Positions 2,229 to 11,862 of a stretch of 16,416 nucleotides of DNA are shown in pieces; the stretch's first letter is position 1; each line of letters starts with the position of its first letter. The notes beneath the pieces are model-generated. The model was not told the origin of the DNA and searched no databases. It saw only the letters and a program-made list of their open reading frames with translations. The DNA is taken from positions 1-16,416 of the forward strand of contig JAEOUE010000247.1 of NCBI GenBank assembly GCA_016839515.1, given 5' to 3'. Position numbers and translations under genes: made by a program. Source of the DNA: Candidatus Hodarchaeum mangrovi. Its GTDB lineage: Archaea > Asgardarchaeota > Heimdallarchaeia > Hodarchaeales > Hodarchaeaceae.

Positions 2229-3752
2229 GTGAATCGAAATTTAAAATCAAATATAAAGGAGTTTGGAGATTATCAAACTCCTGATGAATTAGCGAGTGAA
2301 ATAATTACCCTCATTCAAAAGGAAAATTTCCAGCCAGCGACCATTATAGAACCTACTTGCGGTTTAGGGGCTTTTATTTTAGCTTCAGGAGAACTTTTTC
2401 CTAATTCGCAGATTGTAGGAATTGATATTAATAAAACGTATGTAGAATATATAAATGACCAATTAAGAAGAAAAAAAAGCCCAAATAACATCGAAATACA
2501 AACAAGGGATTTTTTTACCATAAACTGGAAATCTTTGATATCAAATTACTCTGAACCTTATCTAATTGTTGGAAATCCTCCATGGATAACTACAGCTGAT
2601 CTTTCTGTCATTAATAGTAGAAATATTCCTAAAAAATTCAATATTCACAATTATCCAGGACTTGAGGCAAAGATGGGACGAAGTAACTTTGATATTTCAG
2701 AGTGGATGATGTTAGAACTTCTTAATAGTGTCAAAGATACTTCAACGACATTTGTACAAATATGTAAACTTAGTGTAGCGCGTAAGGTGTTTAAATATTG
2801 TGTTGATCATCAAATAAATATTGAAAAAGCTTATATATTTCTTATTGATGCCTTTTTTCATTTTAAAGCTAGTGTAGAAGCTTGTGTTCTGTTTCTTCAA
2901 TTAACTCCTGGAAAATTCACCTCTATATGTGAAATATTTGAAAAATTAAATAAAAATAAGTTACTTCATGAAATAGGAGTCATTGATGGAAAATTAATAG
3001 CAAATATAGAATATTATAGAAAATGGAATCATTTAAATGGAGAATCTCCTTTTGAATGGCGATCAGGAATTAAACACGATTCTGTAAAAGTTATGGAGTT
3101 TATAAAAGGAGAAAAACATTATATTAATGGATTGAAAGAAGAAATCGAAATAGAAAATGATTATTTATACCCGATGCTTAAAAGCTCTGATCTAGCAAAT
3201 AATAAGACCAACCCAAATCGTTGGATGTTGTTAACACAGAAACATACAGGCCAAGATACCTCAATACTTAGAAAAACTGCACCAAAAACATGGAAATATT
3301 TAATGGAAAAAGCATCTTATCTTGACAGAAGAAAAAGTGCTATTTATTTGAAACGCCCAAGATTTTCTATATTTGGTATTGGAGATTATACCTTGGAACC
3401 TTGGAAAATTGCTATTTCAGGTTTTTATAAAAATTTAAAATTTCTCTTTATAGGTCCAAAAGAAGGAAAACCAGTTGTTCTTGATGATACCTGTTATTTC
3501 CTTTCTTTTGATAATTATTGGAAAGCCATGTTAGTTCATACACTTCTAAATCATCCAATAACTGATGAATATTATCGTTCTTACATTTTTTGGGATATGA
3601 AACGTCCAATATCAAAACAAATCCTAATGAACTTAGATTTAAAAAAACTATTAGAGGAAATTGGTTATCAACATTTAATAGAAGCTTTAATGAAAAAAAA
3701 TCCATATTTAAAGCAAGAAAAGATACCTATAATTTTAAAAAATTTGTTTTAG
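2229..3752 (+). CDS. N6-adenine DNA methyltransferase, gamma class, M.NspV-like
   Basis: Motif X FGDYQTP, motif I EPTCGLG and motif IV NPPW in gamma order. Blocks GRSNFDISEWM, WRSGIKHD, RFSIFGIGDYT..PWKIAISGFYK and FWDxKRPI are recalled from M.NspV-type enzymes (from memory, not searched). Confidence 0.9.
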   Translation: MNRNLKSNIKEFGDYQTPDELASEIITLIQKENFQPATIIEPTCGLGAFILASGELFPNSQIVGIDINKTYVEYINDQLRRKKSPNNIEIQTRDFFTINWKSLISNYSEPYLIVGNPPWITTADLSVINSRNIPKKFNIHNYPGLEAKMGRSNFDISEWMMLELLNSVKDTSTTFVQICKLSVARKVFKYCVDHQINIEKAYIFLIDAFFHFKASVEACVLFLQLTPGKFTSICEIFEKLNKNKLLHEIGVIDGKLIANIEYYRKWNHLNGESPFEWRSGIKHDSVKVMEFIKGEKHYINGLKEEIEIENDYLYPMLKSSDLANNKTNPNRWMLLTQKHTGQDTSILRKTAPKTWKYLMEKASYLDRRKSAIYLKRPRFSIFGIGDYTLEPWKIAISGFYKNLKFLFIGPKEGKPVVLDDTCYFLSFDNYWKAMLVHTLLNHPITDEYYRSYIFWDMKRPISKQILMNLDLKKLLEEIGYQHLIEALMKKNPYLKQEKIPIILKNLF

Positions 3753-5072: not shown

Positions 5073-5657
5073 TTGACTATGCATACGAATAAACTACCAC
5101 GTTGTGAGTGGGCAGGGGATGATCCACAAATGATTGCATATCATGATCTTGAATGGGGTGTTCCTGTTCATAATGACCGTGAATTATTTGAATTACTTGT
5201 ACTTGAAGGCGCGCAGGCAGGATTGAGTTGGACGACCATTCTTAAACGACGTGATGGATATAGAACAGCATTTGAAAACTTTGACCCTAAAATAATCTCA
5301 AAATATAATGATACCGATATTGAACGCCTTTTGGAAGATAAATCAATTATTCGTAATAAATTAAAAATTAAGAGCACTATAAATAATGCAAAAAGATTTA
5401 TAGAAATTCAATCTGAATTTGACTCATTTGACCAATATTTATGGGATTTTATTAATCACAAACCAATCCAGAATAAATTTAAAGCCCTTTCAGAGCTACC
5501 TTCTTTCACACCACTTTCTAAAGATATAAGTAATGATTTAAAAAAACGAGGGTTTACTTTTATTGGTCCTACAATTTGTTATGCATTTATGCAGTCAATC
5601 GGAATGGTAAATGACCACTTAATACACTGTTTCCGTTATCATGAATTAAATATCTAA
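5073..5657 (+). CDS. tag: DNA-3-methyladenine glycosylase I
   Basis: RCxW, YHDxEWGVP, LEGAQAGLSW, IIRNKLKI and GMVNDHLxxC zinc ligands. The start may be ATG 5079 rather than TTG 5073. Confidence 0.97.
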   Translation: MTMHTNKLPRCEWAGDDPQMIAYHDLEWGVPVHNDRELFELLVLEGAQAGLSWTTILKRRDGYRTAFENFDPKIISKYNDTDIERLLEDKSIIRNKLKIKSTINNAKRFIEIQSEFDSFDQYLWDFINHKPIQNKFKALSELPSFTPLSKDISNDLKKRGFTFIGPTICYAFMQSIGMVNDHLIHCFRYHELNI

Positions 5658-5924
5658 ATCTACTTATTTTGGTCATTTTTAATTAATTATAAAGATCAAC
5701 CTTTTTAGATAGATTTCAGAGATTAGACATCTTTTTTGTTTGATACTAAATCAACCACGGCAAATAATACAGGAAATTCAGTCTAGATACATTTATTTAT
5801 TCTATAAATTAATTTTGATTAATATTTTTAAAAGCTTTGCTATTACTATAATTTATACGCTTATCTTAATTATTAGAATATCTTATTTTGTTAATCATTA
5901 AACCAGCTCTTTTTATGCTATTTG

Positions 5925-5940
5925 CAAATGCTTAAATATT
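5925..5940 (+). promoter_or_regulatory. Possible archaeal TATA box for the small-peptide unit
   Basis: TTAAATA at 5932-5938, about 25 nt upstream of a GC-richer segment starting near 5961. Weak, because the background is AT-rich. Confidence 0.25.
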
Positions 5941-6019
5941 CTCATAGAAAACAATTTTCCAGCGGCCTCTAAAAGAAATTGCGGTCGTAATGAATCTGAT
6001 TTGAAATAAGGTGAACTAA

Positions 6020-6088
6020 TTGTCTAAAAAGAAAAGTAGTACAAAGAAAAAAACAGAAAAATCTTCAGCAGCTAAGAAAAAGAAATAA
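6020..6088 (+). CDS. 22-aa Lys-rich micro-protein MSKKKSSTKKKTEKSSAAKKKK
   Basis: AAGGTGA RBS at 6008-6014, 5 nt before TTG. 11 of 22 residues are Lys, with mixed AAA/AAG codons. TAA stop at 6086-6088. Absent from the ORF track. Confidence 0.65.
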   Translation: MSKKKSSTKKKTEKSSAAKKKK

Positions 6089-6112
6089 TTGTCAAGTTAT
6101 TTAACCATTAAA

Positions 6113-6149
6113 CACTAGAGAAAGCTTGATTCATCAATCTTATCTGGTG
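6113..6149 (+). promoter_or_regulatory. Intercistronic RNA stem-loop
   Basis: CACTAGA/TCTGGTG, AAG/CTT and TTGA/TCAA stems (14 pairs, one G-U) with a TTCA loop. Confidence 0.5.
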
Positions 6150-6196
6150 CAAATAATGTTTTTCAAATTTATTACCTAGGAGGTAAATAACAAAAA

Positions 6197-6310
6197 ATGG
6201 GATCTAAAGATAAAAAGAAAGACCTTGATGAGGAAGAAGAAGATTTAGATGAAGATTGGGACGACGAAGAAGATTGGGACGACGAAGACGACGACTGGGA
6301 AGATGAATAG
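6197..6310 (+). CDS. 37-aa hyper-acidic Trp-repeat micro-protein MGSKDKKKDLDEEEEDLDEDWDDEEDWDDEDDDWEDE
   Basis: GGAGGT RBS at 6179-6184, ATG at 6197, tandem TAG TAG stops and a downstream T8 tract. 25 of 37 residues are Asp/Glu, with in-frame GAN periodicity. Absent from the ORF track. Confidence 0.8.
   Translation: MGSKDKKKDLDEEEEDLDEDWDDEEDWDDEDDDWEDE
6251..6286 (+). repeat. Perfect 18-bp tandem repeat GAAGATTGGGACGACGAA x2 (EDWDDE), followed by a degenerate third copy
   Basis: Read directly at 6251-6268 and 6269-6286. Confidence 0.9.
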
Positions 6311-6335
6311 TAGTCTTTAATAATCTCAAGATCAC

Positions 6336-6368
6336 TCCCTCTTTTTTTTCCTTAAATTTTCCATTTTC
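6336..6368 (+). terminator. Oligo-T/pyrimidine-rich archaeal-type terminator
   Basis: TCCCTCTTTTTTTTCC (T8 at 6342-6349), about 30 nt after the acidic peptide stop and before the convergent gene. Confidence 0.55.
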
Positions 6369-6370
6369 AA

Positions 6371-7456
6371 TTAAGATTTATTAATTAGTGGAGAGGGAAC
6401 TTGATTGGTATGGAATGGTTTCCAAGTAAAAACTAATAGAATATCAATTATTATAACCATTTGAGAGATAGTACATAATAAACAGATGAATTCTAAGAGA
6501 AATAATTCAATATAAAGAAGATAAAATAAAGATAAAAATCCAACAAATAACAATAAGGTAAGTAACTTATACAATAGCTGTAAATTTTTTTCTGTTATAA
6601 CTATAAATTTCCTAGTTTCAATATTAATGGAGAATGGAGTGGGAATAATACTTATGAAATTAATTATTATGAAAATAGAACTCATAAGCCCTATACCCAT
6701 TAAAGAAAATGGTATCTCTATATTAAAAAGCATTAGATGATCATATCTACGAAATAACAATACCTGAGCCAAATTACCTCCAGCACAGCCACATCCACCA
6801 CGAATATAATCAAGGAGTTGATAAGTAAGGGTTATCAATGAGATTAAGGTCAATCCAATAAGAATCAAAAAACGTTTTTTTGAGATCCTTTTGAGTACCT
6901 TTTGATTACGATTTGGGGAAAAATACCATAAGCAGGGAATATTTAAGAAAATTAAACCTCCAAGGATTAATAATGAAGAAATTCCAAGCAATGGTAGATC
7001 AAGAGACTCAATTGAAATTTTTGGGATGAATGGTTGTGATGTTTTAGGAACAGTATATCCTGAATCTGTTAGAATTGCTAGAAAGGTGGTTTCAATCGAT
7101 TCAAGGTTTCTTTCATCTATAATTATCAGCTGATTATCTCCCCAATGGAATATAACCCATGGGAAACCTTGTAATGTGGAAGTATTAATGTCAAGAGAAT
7201 CAATTATATCCCAATATGATGCTAGTCCGATTTCAGTGTAGGTATCTATTAGAAGAAAATCTATGGTCTCATTATCTCTATAAGAATTGTAAAAAGGTTT
7301 AACATATGTGCTATATTTTGACATACAAGCAGAACATTCAGAATAATAAATTATGTAACATTCTATTAGGACTGGTTGGGCTGAATGAGAAGGAACGGGA
7401 GTGATTAATAATAAGAATATACTTAATACGATAATTAGATTTTTCTGTCTTAGCAT
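6371..7456 (-). CDS. Thioredoxin-like domain fused to a VKOR-family membrane domain
   Basis: N-terminal signal-like segment, CSAC motif and GFP cis-Pro loop. The C-terminal multi-TM region has loop CGC, IPFSLMGIG and YLLYIELFLLEFICLLC, matching the VKOR CxxC helix. Confidence 0.75.
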   Translation of the reverse strand: MLRQKNLIIVLSIFLLLITPVPSHSAQPVLIECYIIYYSECSACMSKYSTYVKPFYNSYRDNETIDFLLIDTYTEIGLASYWDIIDSLDINTSTLQGFPWVIFHWGDNQLIIIDERNLESIETTFLAILTDSGYTVPKTSQPFIPKISIESLDLPLLGISSLLILGGLIFLNIPCLWYFSPNRNQKVLKRISKKRFLILIGLTLISLITLTYQLLDYIRGGCGCAGGNLAQVLLFRRYDHLMLFNIEIPFSLMGIGLMSSIFIIINFISIIPTPFSINIETRKFIVITEKNLQLLYKLLTLLLFVGFLSLFYLLYIELFLLEFICLLCTISQMVIIIDILLVFTWKPFHTNQVPSPLINKS

Positions 7457-9088: not shown

Positions 9089-9364
9089 ATGCGTTTAACT
9101 CAGCAATTTGGAATGAAAAAATCATTAGATCACTTATTTCAGCTCCTATATATGTCAACTAATCTTTTTTCTAATTTTGAATCACAAGAGGGATTGCATG
9201 TTCTTCATCTCAAGTTTAATAATTCACAGAATTATACAGAAGCCGAAGTTAGACAGCTTCTGTCTTATTTTCTGGACTTAGTAGAATACTTTACACATGA
9301 AAGAATTCTTCTAATTCAGGACCCAACTGATAAAACAAGATTTGCTTTAAGTGGAGGATTTTAA
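9089..9364 (+). CDS. Hypothetical protein, possibly the 3' part of a longer decayed gene
   Basis: 91-aa ORF abutting the next gene, with no recognisable motif. The frame extends back to ATG 8936 through two stops. Confidence 0.5.
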   Translation: MRLTQQFGMKKSLDHLFQLLYMSTNLFSNFESQEGLHVLHLKFNNSQNYTEAEVRQLLSYFLDLVEYFTHERILLIQDPTDKTRFALSGGF

Positions 9365-9365
9365 T

Positions 9366-9815
9366 GTGTATTCAGAAAAATCCTATATAGATAAAGCCAA
9401 TTCTGCTGAAAGAAAGCTTATAGCTTGGAAAGAATCAGAAAACATTACAGTAGCTCAGCAGGAAATTAAAAAGATACCTATGAGAACTTCAAGAGATGAA
9501 GAAGTAGCAAATAGAGCTTTATTGCTTCTTTCATTTAAAGATACTTCGATTCAAAATTTAAAGCATGTTTTCAATGTATTAGGCATAAAAACGGTTGAAG
9601 AAAAAAGAAAAATTTTGAAAGTGATATTTCATTTCATACGAGAAGGTTTAATTTATATCCCAAAGGGTTTACCAAATCTAATAGACAAGGGAGTCCTGAT
9701 AGATTTAAATAATCCTGCAGAAGAGAGTATTGAGATACATCTACTAAGACCTTTTGACGAATTGATAAAGGAAATCCAAGAGGAAATTACCAGTTTATAT
9801 GTTGGTGAGAAATAA
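9366..9815 (+). CDS. Hypothetical protein, possible winged-helix fold
   Basis: GGAGG at 9353-9357 lies 8 nt before the in-frame GTG 9366 (the track start is 9351). LLLLS...SIQNL...ILKVIFHFIREGLIYI resembles a wHTH pattern. Confidence 0.65.
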   Translation: MYSEKSYIDKANSAERKLIAWKESENITVAQQEIKKIPMRTSRDEEVANRALLLLSFKDTSIQNLKHVFNVLGIKTVEEKRKILKVIFHFIREGLIYIPKGLPNLIDKGVLIDLNNPAEESIEIHLLRPFDELIKEIQEEITSLYVGEK

Positions 9816-9827
9816 ATTAATTGAAGA

Positions 9828-10307
9828 TTGTCTGAAATCTATCAATTTGGTGGATGTCGAATGATAATGTATAATGGTTCAATTAAAAAGGTAAATTCTG
9901 AAAAACAAATAGATGAACTTGAACTAGTAAAAATAAAATCTTATTTAAATGAAGCTTTTCCAATTTCTGAGTATAATTTGACAATAATATGGCATGAACT
10001 GAAACAAATGAGAGCTGAACTTGAAATCTCACAAAAAATTCCTATTTCTGACCTTATTGACTATTATTTTAAACTCATTACGGTTAAACAAGCATTTAAT
10101 AACCAAATAAGTAATTTTGTACAGCTTAATCAATTATATATTGAATTAATTACAATTCGAGAAATGTTAGATCTTTCAGAATCTGTAAGAATTTCAGAGA
10201 TAATCGACTTTATTCAGAATGAGGACCTTACCAAACTAGGGATAGGGAAAAATTCTTTGTTAGAAAAACTATTGAAACTTACATTCTTGAATCTCTCATG
10301 GTATTGA
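9828..10307 (+). CDS. Hypothetical protein
   Basis: 159-aa ORF starting 12 nt after the previous stop. Helical composition. An alternative start is ATG 9861, after GGTGGA. Confidence 0.65.
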   Translation: MSEIYQFGGCRMIMYNGSIKKVNSEKQIDELELVKIKSYLNEAFPISEYNLTIIWHELKQMRAELEISQKIPISDLIDYYFKLITVKQAFNNQISNFVQLNQLYIELITIREMLDLSESVRISEIIDFIQNEDLTKLGIGKNSLLEKLLKLTFLNLSWY

Positions 10308-10434
10308 ATTTTCCTCATTCTTGAATTGCGTTCATATTAAAAAGTGTTATTTTTTCATTAAGAAATGTTTTTGATAGGTACTAGATCTTTTTACATATGC
10401 TCATTCTAGAAAAACAGAACATGAGGTTTTTGAA

Positions 10435-11862
10435 TTGGTTTTTCCTATAAATATTGAATCTCCGAATGATTGGTTAGAACAGATTCCCTCCTTTTTATCC
10501 TCTCTACAACCAGATTCTATTTATCTCGATTCTTTTGAATTCCAATCATATTTAGCTAATAAATTAAACAATTTCTATTCCCAATACCCCTTAAAATTTA
10601 ATAGTATAATTAAAGAAATTTTAAAAACAAGTACAGAACTAGCAAAATATCTTTTAATCAAGATATTATTATTAACTCCAGATTTATGGAAAAATTTCAA
10701 ACTTGATGATGAATTTCAACCAATATTGACAGAGCTTGCTCTTACTCCAGATAAAATTTATGCGAAAAATGCTGCAACATTATCCAAAAATATTATAGAG
10801 ACTGTGGAAAGTCAAAGATTCAAAGCTGAAAAAGTAAGTGAGGATGCGGGAACATTTGATGAAATTGAAGATAAGGAAATCAGCTTTGGAGAAGAAGAAG
10901 AAGAAGCTTTTGATGACCTTTCACTCTCAAAAATTATTCATGAATCTGAAGCAGAAACTTTTAAGAGAGAAAAAGCTTCTAAATCAGCCCCAGTACTTAA
11001 GGAAGCTCAGCCTCCTAAACCTAGCCCAGCATTTGGTGCTCCTAGTCGAAAAACAAGCCCAACTTCACCACCAGTCCCTTCCATGGAGAGAATGGAATCA
11101 ATATCTAAAAAAGAGAGCATAAAACCTGATACTATTTCATCTAAAATGTCTAAAGGGCAAACAATTCATACTCATGTTCACTATTACTCACGGATGAATC
11201 CACGTAAAACTTATCCATTTACTGTTACTTTATCAACTCTAGCTATAAAATTAAAAAGAGATAAGATTCATATATTGACTGGTGAAGAAGAATCCGAGAC
11301 CAGAGGTGATTTTGAATTATATGATATAAAAAGCGATCTTATAATTGAACCTTTACTCTCTGGATGCCTTGTTCAACCAACTTTTCAATTTTTTAGTCCA
11401 AAACCAGAAAATTTTCCAAGTGAATTAACCTTCTATATCACACCTTTAGTTGAAGCAGGATTTCGATCTACACAATTAGAAGGAGTATTGTACATCAAAG
11501 ACGAGAAAAGTAATATTCTATTAAAGTTAGAATTAGAAGAAACACGAGTAGTTAGTAATCGATTAAGTCAATTAGTAGCAATTTTCGGAGTTCTAAGTGG
11601 TGGAGCAATGCCTTTTCTTGATACTTTTATTTTTGGAGGAGATCTTCAAGCTCAAGTCATAACACAACTCTCAGAGAATGCTCAAAATTTAGCTCCAGCA
11701 ATTACAGGTTCTTTTACAAATGTTGATTGGTGGAATTTACTCACTAGTTTTCAAATCATACTTGTTGGTGGTACCTTACTTGGAGCCTTAATATATTGGT
11801 GGAAACGTTCTAGAGCTAGGATAGGTCCTATTGCGACTTCACAACTACAATTAAATCCTTAG
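10435..11862 (+). CDS. Hypothetical C-terminally membrane-anchored protein with acidic and Pro/Ser-rich linker
   Basis: GAGGT RBS before TTG. Helical N-domain, EEEEE tract, PPKPSP/SPTSPPVP region, beta-rich domain, then two hydrophobic segments ending in WWKRSR. Confidence 0.8.
   Translation: MVFPINIESPNDWLEQIPSFLSSLQPDSIYLDSFEFQSYLANKLNNFYSQYPLKFNSIIKEILKTSTELAKYLLIKILLLTPDLWKNFKLDDEFQPILTELALTPDKIYAKNAATLSKNIIETVESQRFKAEKVSEDAGTFDEIEDKEISFGEEEEEAFDDLSLSKIIHESEAETFKREKASKSAPVLKEAQPPKPSPAFGAPSRKTSPTSPPVPSMERMESISKKESIKPDTISSKMSKGQTIHTHVHYYSRMNPRKTYPFTVTLSTLAIKLKRDKIHILTGEEESETRGDFELYDIKSDLIIEPLLSGCLVQPTFQFFSPKPENFPSELTFYITPLVEAGFRSTQLEGVLYIKDEKSNILLKLELEETRVVSNRLSQLVAIFGVLSGGAMPFLDTFIFGGDLQAQVITQLSENAQNLAPAITGSFTNVDWWNLLTSFQIILVGGTLLGALIYWWKRSRARIGPIATSQLQLNP

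Follow-up and report, generated by a model that had tools for sequence, protein, structure and literature searches.

The ABCE1 accessory factor eIF3j/Hcr1 has an N-terminal acidic motif with a key tryptophan and an adjoining lysine-rich stretch, and proteins of the LysW type combine small size and acidity with a tryptophan near the C-terminus. DSS1/Sem1 is a small, acidic, tryptophan-containing disordered subunit of proteasome lid, BRCA2 and TREX-2 complexes. Its aromatic side chains fit into pockets where several folded partners present a basic surface. Prothymosin-α and linker histone H1 form a disordered polyelectrolyte complex of high affinity (PMC7661507, PMC10576128). Here we analyse a stretch of 16,416 nucleotides (nt) from the Asgard archaeon Candidatus Hodarchaeum mangrovi (contig JAEOUE010000247.1 of assembly GCA_016839515.1; the whole stretch is hereafter called the window), in which two adjacent micro-genes encode a lysine-rich and an acidic, tryptophan-bearing micro-protein. 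Histone-fold genes, ABCE1 and TFS in the genome, together with promoter boxes of archaeal type, agree with an archaeal host. Both are very probably genuine co-conserved genes, and we give a probability of roughly 45% to the reading that the acidic peptide would act as a polyelectrolyte partner of strongly basic proteins, beginning with the one encoded beside it.

As judged from composition and arrangement, the resemblance of this pair to prothymosin-α/H1, DSS1/Sem1 and eIF3j is one of composition and logic, not of membership. Like prothymosin-α and H1, the pair consists of two charged, low-complexity, presumably disordered chains of opposite sign, the acidic one being a candidate chaperone or competitor of a lysine-rich nucleic-acid binder. 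The archaeal chains, however, are five to ten times smaller and form a two-gene cassette; moreover, the acidic partner has regularly spaced tryptophans and a basic N-terminus, and there is no Pfam match to prothymosin or to a linker histone. With DSS1/Sem1 the acidic peptide shares small size, strong acidity and predicted disorder, although it is shorter and matches no profile. The eIF3j/Hcr1 layout, an acidic run with tryptophan beside a lysine-rich run, is also recognizable, and some archaeal acidic-tryptophan reading frames adjoin ABCE1, whereas here the two charge blocks are separate genes, with no ABCE1 linkage in the Asgard sample and no profile match.

The micro-gene pair and its coding signal

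A preliminary description of this DNA had proposed that an apparently empty gap beside the tag gene holds two tandem small open reading frames (sORFs) of opposite charge. Both were located, with the compositions it gave, in the 713-nt gap that separates tag, which ends at 5657, from a convergent gene for a protein of 361 amino acids (aa), whose end is at 6371, and the ribosome-binding sites, candidate TATA box and T8 tract that it had pointed out could also be read:

5931 to 5938, + strand: TATA-like box CTTAAATA, 89 nt 5′ of the first start, a candidate archaeal promoter
6009 to 6014, + strand: Shine-Dalgarno-like AGGTGA, 5 nt ahead of the TTG of the lysine-rich gene
6020 to 6088, + strand: lysine-rich micro-gene, TTG start, 22 aa with 11 Lys and 1 Glu
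6089 to 6196, + strand: inter-gene spacer of 108 nt, in which the predicted hairpin is not significant
6179 to 6184, + strand: Shine-Dalgarno-like GGAGGT, 12 nt ahead of the ATG of the acidic gene
6197 to 6310, + strand: acidic-tryptophan micro-gene, ATG start, 37 aa with 25 Asp/Glu and 4 Lys, Trp at residues 21, 27 and 34
6342 to 6349, + strand: T8 tract, 32 nt past the second stop, a candidate archaeal terminator

The estimated net charges, counted by hand, are about +10 for the lysine-rich peptide and about −21 for the acidic one, in which a short basic N-terminus is combined with a tryptophan every 6–7 residues. The similarity that had been suggested between the two N-termini holds in part: a basic stretch and KKP-type motifs are found in some subgroups of the family, but not in all.

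We enumerated all 59,081 sORFs of 15–80 aa in the organism's own assembly of 4,006,905 bases. Only one of them, 6197–6310, combines at least 40% Asp/Glu with at least two tryptophans, and it is separated by 109 nt from a basic sORF, a class with just 157 members genome-wide; this uniqueness, together with the adjacency, excludes chance as the source of the arrangement. Selection was examined in codon alignments of 15 acidic and 13 lysine-rich genes. Among the acidic genes, differences at codon positions 1, 2 and 3 numbered 591, 427 and 1727, the median proportion of synonymous differences (pS) was 0.78 vs 0.20 for nonsynonymous ones (pN), and two close species pairs gave 0.57 vs 0.07 and 0.42 vs 0.07. 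Substitutions were mostly synonymous or exchanged Asp and Glu, the preliminary description having proposed to look for synonymous variation among relatives, and two Glu, two Trp and one Asp were invariant across the 14 members of the acidic alignment. The signal of the lysine-rich genes was weaker overall (574, 484 and 693 differences; median pS 0.62 vs pN 0.33) but clear in close species pairs (0.39 vs 0.06 and 0.45 vs 0.11), and the window's own lysine-rich gene was the most divergent of the aligned members. Across species, the start, stop, length and ribosome-binding site of the sORFs are conserved, and in four metagenome DNA runs from four studies the region was nearly invariant, with three variant sites; the sole one within a gene (6232 G>A, GAG to GAA, in the acidic gene) is synonymous. 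These comparisons show, at the level of sequence, that both genes are under purifying selection and linked.

It could be argued instead that purine-rich DNA of low complexity has thrown up both frames by chance, or that the locus encodes a non-coding RNA, given that AAG/AAA and GAA/GAT runs form easily at the window's G+C content of about 30% and that further frames are open across the acidic repeat. We regard this as highly improbable and already largely refuted by the uniqueness of the acidic sORF in its genome, by the conserved starts, stops, lengths and ribosome-binding sites, by the third-position excess of substitutions, and by a motif search across the phylum in which the reversed control pattern gave 0 in every row listed (see below). 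Region 5400–6700 gave a chance-level microRNA match only in Rfam, no tRNA was found in the 713-nt gap, and the fold of the entire two-gene unit was not unusual (z-score +0.7). The hairpins that the preliminary description had placed between the genes did not survive comparison with shuffled sequences, 15 of 200 of which folded equally well (z-score −1.5).

Expression signals were compared across 16 units, namely 14 from the genus, one from another family of the phylum (genome G060) and one from a Promethearchaeota record (L109). An octamer of the TTTAAATA type stands 78–121 nt 5′ of the first start in 12 of the 16 units; GGTG lies within 15 nt of 10 of the 16 first-gene and 14 of the 16 second-gene starts (24 of 32 in total); and 9 units have a run of at least six T no more than 80 nt past the last stop. 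Spacers between the paired genes in relatives measure 29–125 nt. Because the box, the GGTG and the T-run recur across units, the arrangement fits one promoter, two ribosome-binding sites and one terminator for the pair, from which we infer co-transcription of both micro-genes. Of the earlier proposal of a co-expressed polycation/polyanion module, then, the conserved linkage stands and the recurring signals fit. Binding of the two peptides to each other, and action as a nucleic-acid binder with its chaperone or DNA mimic, as a condensate-forming pair or as a toxin with its antidote, would be candidate functions. In a short-spacer subgroup (L002, L005, L007, L011) the T-run is replaced by a conserved inverted repeat TTTTCCC...GGGAAAA 3′ of the acidic gene, which may be a terminator or a regulatory hairpin, and in three congeners (G007, G003 and G014; L003, L004, L009) blocks of the 5′ leader and spacer (alignment A4, columns about 115–145 and 365–420) are conserved as strongly as the coding parts.

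Distribution of the pair and of the acidic family

In a DNA search of 41 relatives, matches were confined to the acidic repeat, and beside each match we found two reading frames that share a strand, an acidic-tryptophan one of 31–53 aa and a lysine-rich one of 19–27 aa. A lack of conservation of either frame, or of their adjacency, had been named beforehand as a result that would refute the proposal; such conservation was found in 12 of the 22 genus genomes, counting the window's own, G000 (the others being G001, G003, G007, G009, G011, G012, G014, G015, G016, G019 and G021), as well as outside the genus in G060 and in L109, where a lysine-rich frame of 24 aa lies 96 nt downstream of the acidic one. 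The basic gene precedes the acidic gene in most carriers and follows it in G003, G007, G014 and G021; two tandem pairs are present in G001 and in G016, a second copy lies 8 kb away in G011, and G015 has two lysine-rich frames. As the flanking genes differ between subgroups of pair carriers, the two genes move together as a cassette. The context seen in the window is unique, with no pair at any of the 14 other loci that have the neighbouring membrane-protein gene.

This distribution bears on whether the pair is a toxin/antidote or defence-linked cassette, in which a polycation that harms membranes or nucleic acids would be neutralized by the polyanion. The patchy range (12 of 22 congeners), the absence of the cassette from the syntenic position at all 14 of those loci, the variable genomic contexts and the tandem duplications are all compatible with such a role. 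So is the presence of defence-type genes nearby: in G011, G001 and G019 the gene directly upstream of the pair (L002:1-960, with matches in L007 and L011) encodes a SAVED-domain protein that matches the SAVED-endonuclease effectors of PADLOC (E 1e-23), and a type II DNA methyltransferase gene lies 2.3 kb upstream in the window. However, PADLOC models match neither of the peptides, the acidic gene is old, widespread and often present without a polycation, no pair was found among 51 viral-contig matches, and elsewhere acidic sORFs sit amid housekeeping genes, so that we hold this explanation to be quite unlikely.

The acidic gene extends well beyond the genus. A pattern of Trp, four to six acidic codons, Trp and two acidic codons matched 115 of 400 phylum genomes, whereas its reversed control gave 0 in every listed row. 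Of 30 loci that were read, 26 had the motif in a reading frame of at most 90 aa, 3 had it within a larger protein and 1 had no complete frame around it, and the small frames typically begin with a short basic or Gly-Pro-Lys/Arg segment. A three-tryptophan pattern searched in one genome per prokaryotic species gave at least 120 stretches; the 80 that were read comprised 24 frames of at most 100 aa, 35 acidic tails on larger proteins, most of them bacterial, and 21 stretches with no complete frame. Small archaeal matches among these 80 came from Thermococcus, Thermoprotei, Bathyarchaeia, Thorarchaeota, Promethearchaeota and Micrarchaeota records, relatives with the module being labelled Promethearchaeota and Thorarchaeota, and records labelled Desulfurococcaceae and Ignisphaera were also represented. 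Viral contigs held 51 stretches with the three-tryptophan motif, 7 of them in frames of at most 100 aa and none with a lysine-rich neighbour. The window's copy shares the features of the family: an sORF within the range of about 25–90 aa with its own ribosome-binding site, a basic or Gly-Pro-Lys/Arg N-terminus (here Gly-Ser-Lys in place of the relatives' Gly-Pro-Lys), an Asp/Glu run with a tryptophan every 4–7 residues, and an adjacent strongly basic gene, in this case the lysine-rich micro-gene 5′ of it. Common descent of the acidic-tryptophan sORFs across lineages is plausible.

Three Chloroflexota records (L076, L128, L133) encode zinc-ribbon mini-proteins of 71–84 aa with long acidic-tryptophan tails, a layout that we take to be LysW-like. 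They lend some colour to the idea that the micro-protein is an amino-group carrier protein of the LysW/ArgW type, with which it shares tiny size, strong acidity and a tryptophan near the C-terminus. Yet the archaeal micro-protein lacks a matching C-terminal end, its 37 residues include no cysteine and hence no zinc ribbon (two CxxC pairs), and Pfam finds no ATP-grasp ligase (LysX/ArgX) or lysine/arginine biosynthesis gene among the window's larger reading frames; we consider this identification exceedingly improbable.

The preliminary description had recognized no described family, and searches agree. Neither peptide belongs to a Pfam (E up to 10), NCBIfam or PADLOC family (0 families at E up to 0.01), and hmmscan of 14 acidic members against Pfam gave no DSS1_SEM1, prothymosin or eIF3j-type match at E up to 10. 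A six-frame search of the whole genome with DSS1_SEM1 (PF05160) found nothing at E up to 10, a search in which low-complexity filtering may mask weak similarity. A profile search of the PDB with the acidic alignment likewise returned nothing (E up to 10), the best ESM Atlas score of 0.78 was below the usable level, and a homologue search with the same alignment, for which the low-complexity query is uninformative, gave one weak match among 8000 scored candidates. All nine family members tested were absent from about 15 billion predicted proteins by exact-sequence lookup, and literature searches found no description of such a pair or family. As far as these searches show, the acidic-tryptophan micro-proteins are an undescribed archaeal family.

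Basic neighbours and candidate partners

At six loci from five other Asgard lineages, the acidic sORF lies about 75–435 nt from a gene for a basic protein of 267–306 aa with an isoelectric point (pI) of 10.2–10.9 (L034:1864-2667, L035:1957-2817, L052:281-1120, L053:797-1636, L099:612-1532 and L109:4-822). These basic proteins are mutually homologous through a chain of pairwise matches (E 4e-46, 2.5e-9, 2e-6 and 1.5e-4). Their family, which has no Pfam, PADLOC or NCBIfam assignment, accounts for 100 representative clusters among 1.84 billion proteins, and we refer to its members as orphans. The structural model is confident (predicted local distance difference test 92.6, predicted template-modelling score 0.88) and consists of two alpha/beta domains and a three-helix bundle. 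Foldseek gave no convincing solved relative: the best match was to designed ferredoxin folds (E 1.8e-3), and PaaX, at rank 13 with E 0.023 and a template-modelling score of 0.25, was rejected. VIA-align matched only the C-terminal three-helix bundle, with a Z of about 11, a level common for helical bundles. The orphan was found in none of the 22 genus genomes by profile, nor in the window's genome by tblastn. When the 34-aa acidic peptide of the Promethearchaeota locus and the 271-aa basic orphan beside it were submitted to complex prediction, the score was 0.01 (mark 0.32), which carries no weight either way on binding.

Because the acidic sORF adjoins a protein of such high pI at six loci in five other lineages, an affinity of the acidic peptide for basic partners is supported, and the most constant theme in the sequences is an acidic-aromatic module paired with a strongly basic element. 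We therefore favour a mechanism, at the probability given above, in which positions 5931–6349 would form a self-contained two-gene cassette, expressed as one transcript and encoding two oppositely charged micro-proteins that are predicted to be disordered. Through its complementary charge, the acidic peptide would bind, buffer or chaperone strongly basic partners, to which its tryptophan side chains would anchor it. In the genus, the partner would be the co-encoded lysine-rich peptide, whose composition suggests that, left free, it would adhere to nucleic acids; elsewhere among Asgard archaea, the orphan with pI above 10 encoded next door would take this place, and the polyanion could bind additional basic proteins. 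The likely outcome would be control of the polycation's access to nucleic acids; the disorder of the chains, their binding to each other and the choice of nucleic acid as target are all steps that we infer.

Several observations weigh against this mechanism, and against a simple one-to-one complex in particular. The charges are unequal one to one (+10 vs −21), and tryptophans conserved at regular intervals point to a peptide that docks on a folded surface, not to polyelectrolyte attraction alone. The acidic gene is far more widespread than the lysine-rich gene: no lysine-rich frame was seen in 13 acidic loci of other families that were inspected, and only two of the six orphan-associated acidic loci have a lysine-rich neighbour. 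Because most acidic sORFs examined outside the genus lack such a neighbour, the lysine-rich peptide cannot be the general partner of the family. Within the genus, DNA, profile and pattern searches did not find the pair in 10 of the 22 congeners (70–93% complete), where it is either dispensable or was missed; the family profile is a poor detector here, failing to recover even the window's own acidic gene. No RNA sequencing run containing the region is listed, and the low complexity of the sequences leaves descent across lineages plausible but not proven.

A different set of neighbours raises the possibility that the acidic-tryptophan peptide, perhaps with the lysine-rich one, is an accessory ligand of a conserved machine of information processing, either the ribosome-recycling ATPase ABCE1 or transcription factor S (TFS) with RNA polymerase, in the manner of eIF3j/Hcr1. 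In TACK-type records labelled Thermoprotei, Thermoproteota and Bathyarchaeota (L074:4324-6753, L086:1874-3861, L106:1892-3897 and L112:1785-2186), sORFs of the form (Glu3-4 Trp)n, often ending in tryptophan, lie between an upstream THUMP gene and an RPB9/TFS-type zinc-ribbon gene and/or ABCE1. Among 14 archaeal acidic-tryptophan loci that were read, three sORFs are directly upstream of ABCE1 (L074, L086, L106) and two directly upstream of the RPB9/TFS-type gene (L074, L112), with the identity of these neighbours confirmed by Pfam. Moreover, the pair itself is upstream of the TFS gene in three congeners, at 85 nt in G012 and G009 and at 1.1 kb in G015. However, no acidic or lysine-rich sORF was found within 1.5 kb at any of 30 Asgard ABCE1 loci or 30 Asgard TFS loci, and in the window's genome ABCE1, its paralogue, TFS and THUMP are all without one nearby. 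The TACK sORFs may be merely compositionally alike, and no eIF3j-type Pfam match was obtained at E up to 10. Together these results make an ABCE1 or TFS accessory role unlikely.

A look-alike of the acidic module is fused to a replication protein. In 21 of 21 relatives PCNA has a C-terminal acidic tail of 35–40 aa, with spaced tryptophans in 16 genomes and only tyrosine in 5 (loci L320–L340; also L010 and L049); the PCNA of G000 was not found in its assembly. The tyrosine-only tails belong to G002, G004, G013, G018 and G020, all among the genomes where the pair was not found, and a tyrosine-for-tryptophan pattern searched in five congeners without the pair matched only PCNA tails. Since the PCNA tail resembles the acidic micro-protein, the acidic-aromatic motif is a reused module in these organisms, a point that also favours the polyelectrolyte-partner mechanism.

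The likeness of these tails to the micro-protein is one of the points in favour of a chromatin or replication accessory, in which the lysine-rich peptide would be a free-standing DNA binder resembling a histone tail or linker histone and the acidic peptide a DSS1/prothymosin-like chaperone or DNA mimic. One preprint describes very abundant histones in Hodarchaeales and Lokiarchaeia, some with lysine-rich tails of 16–32 aa (bioRxiv 10.64898/2026.07.02.735847). All eight histone-fold matches in the window's genome (contigs C133, C267, C129, C16, C58, C63 and C161) appear to be without lysine-rich N-terminal tails; the match on C129 is a doublet histone and that on C161 a 381-aa histone-fold fusion with a Lys/Arg-rich end. 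On the other hand, the genome has no DSS1_SEM1 match at E up to 10, the peptides have no prothymosin or DSS1 match in Pfam, the acidic family also occurs in the Desulfurococcaceae and Ignisphaera records, and no chromatin gene recurs as a neighbour. The argument is wholly one of analogy in composition, and we judge this role rather unlikely. The polyelectrolyte-partner mechanism remains the one that we favour.

Neighbouring genes and broader significance

The genes around the pair were also annotated. On its 5′ side lies tag, and the convergent gene on its other side ends 3′ of the pair:

5073 to 5657: tag, DNA-3-methyladenine glycosylase (Pfam Adenine_glyco, E 7e-82)
6371 to 7456, − strand: membrane protein of 361 aa

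The membrane protein has CxxC-type motifs in its N-terminal soluble part and near its C-terminus, and its gene is conserved beside an Mrp/NUBPL-type ATPase gene in congeners. The name VKOR, which the preliminary description had given it, is echoed by a sub-threshold NCBIfam match (E 1.9e-5, 25 bits, cut-off 120) but not by any match in Pfam. The methyltransferase gene mentioned above (2229–3752, + strand) encodes a type II DNA methyltransferase of 507 aa (PADLOC MTase_II, E 1.7e-149; Pfam N6_Mtase weak). Further downstream, four consecutive reading frames of 91, 154, 159 and 475 aa with no Pfam or PADLOC family (9089–11862, + strand) lie upstream of two M16-type peptidase genes.

Low-complexity micro-proteins of 20–50 residues escape gene callers and profile searches. 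Even so, in Asgard archaea both genes of this pair are conserved, stay linked and evolve under selection. The acidic one is found again and again across the phylum, as the motif searches indicate, and probably in other archaea. Whatever its function, the pair marks a blind spot in archaeal annotation.

By analogy, one might go further and propose that a minimal, gene-encoded polyelectrolyte system persists in the archaea most closely related to eukaryotes, in which a free-standing polycation resembling a histone tail or linker histone is combined with a tryptophan-anchored chaperone of the DSS1/prothymosin type, a module also fused to PCNA. We think this improbable as it stands; if true, the disordered acidic chaperones of eukaryotes, which handle the basic proteins of chromatin and ribosomes, would have a prokaryotic forerunner in this system. 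If the lysine-rich and acidic micro-proteins form a complex, or if the acidic one has a general affinity for basic proteins, prokaryotes would have their first described case of a gene-encoded disordered polyelectrolyte pair. Such a case would offer a simple system for how cells handle highly basic nucleic-acid binders, with relevance to the origin of eukaryotic acidic chaperones.

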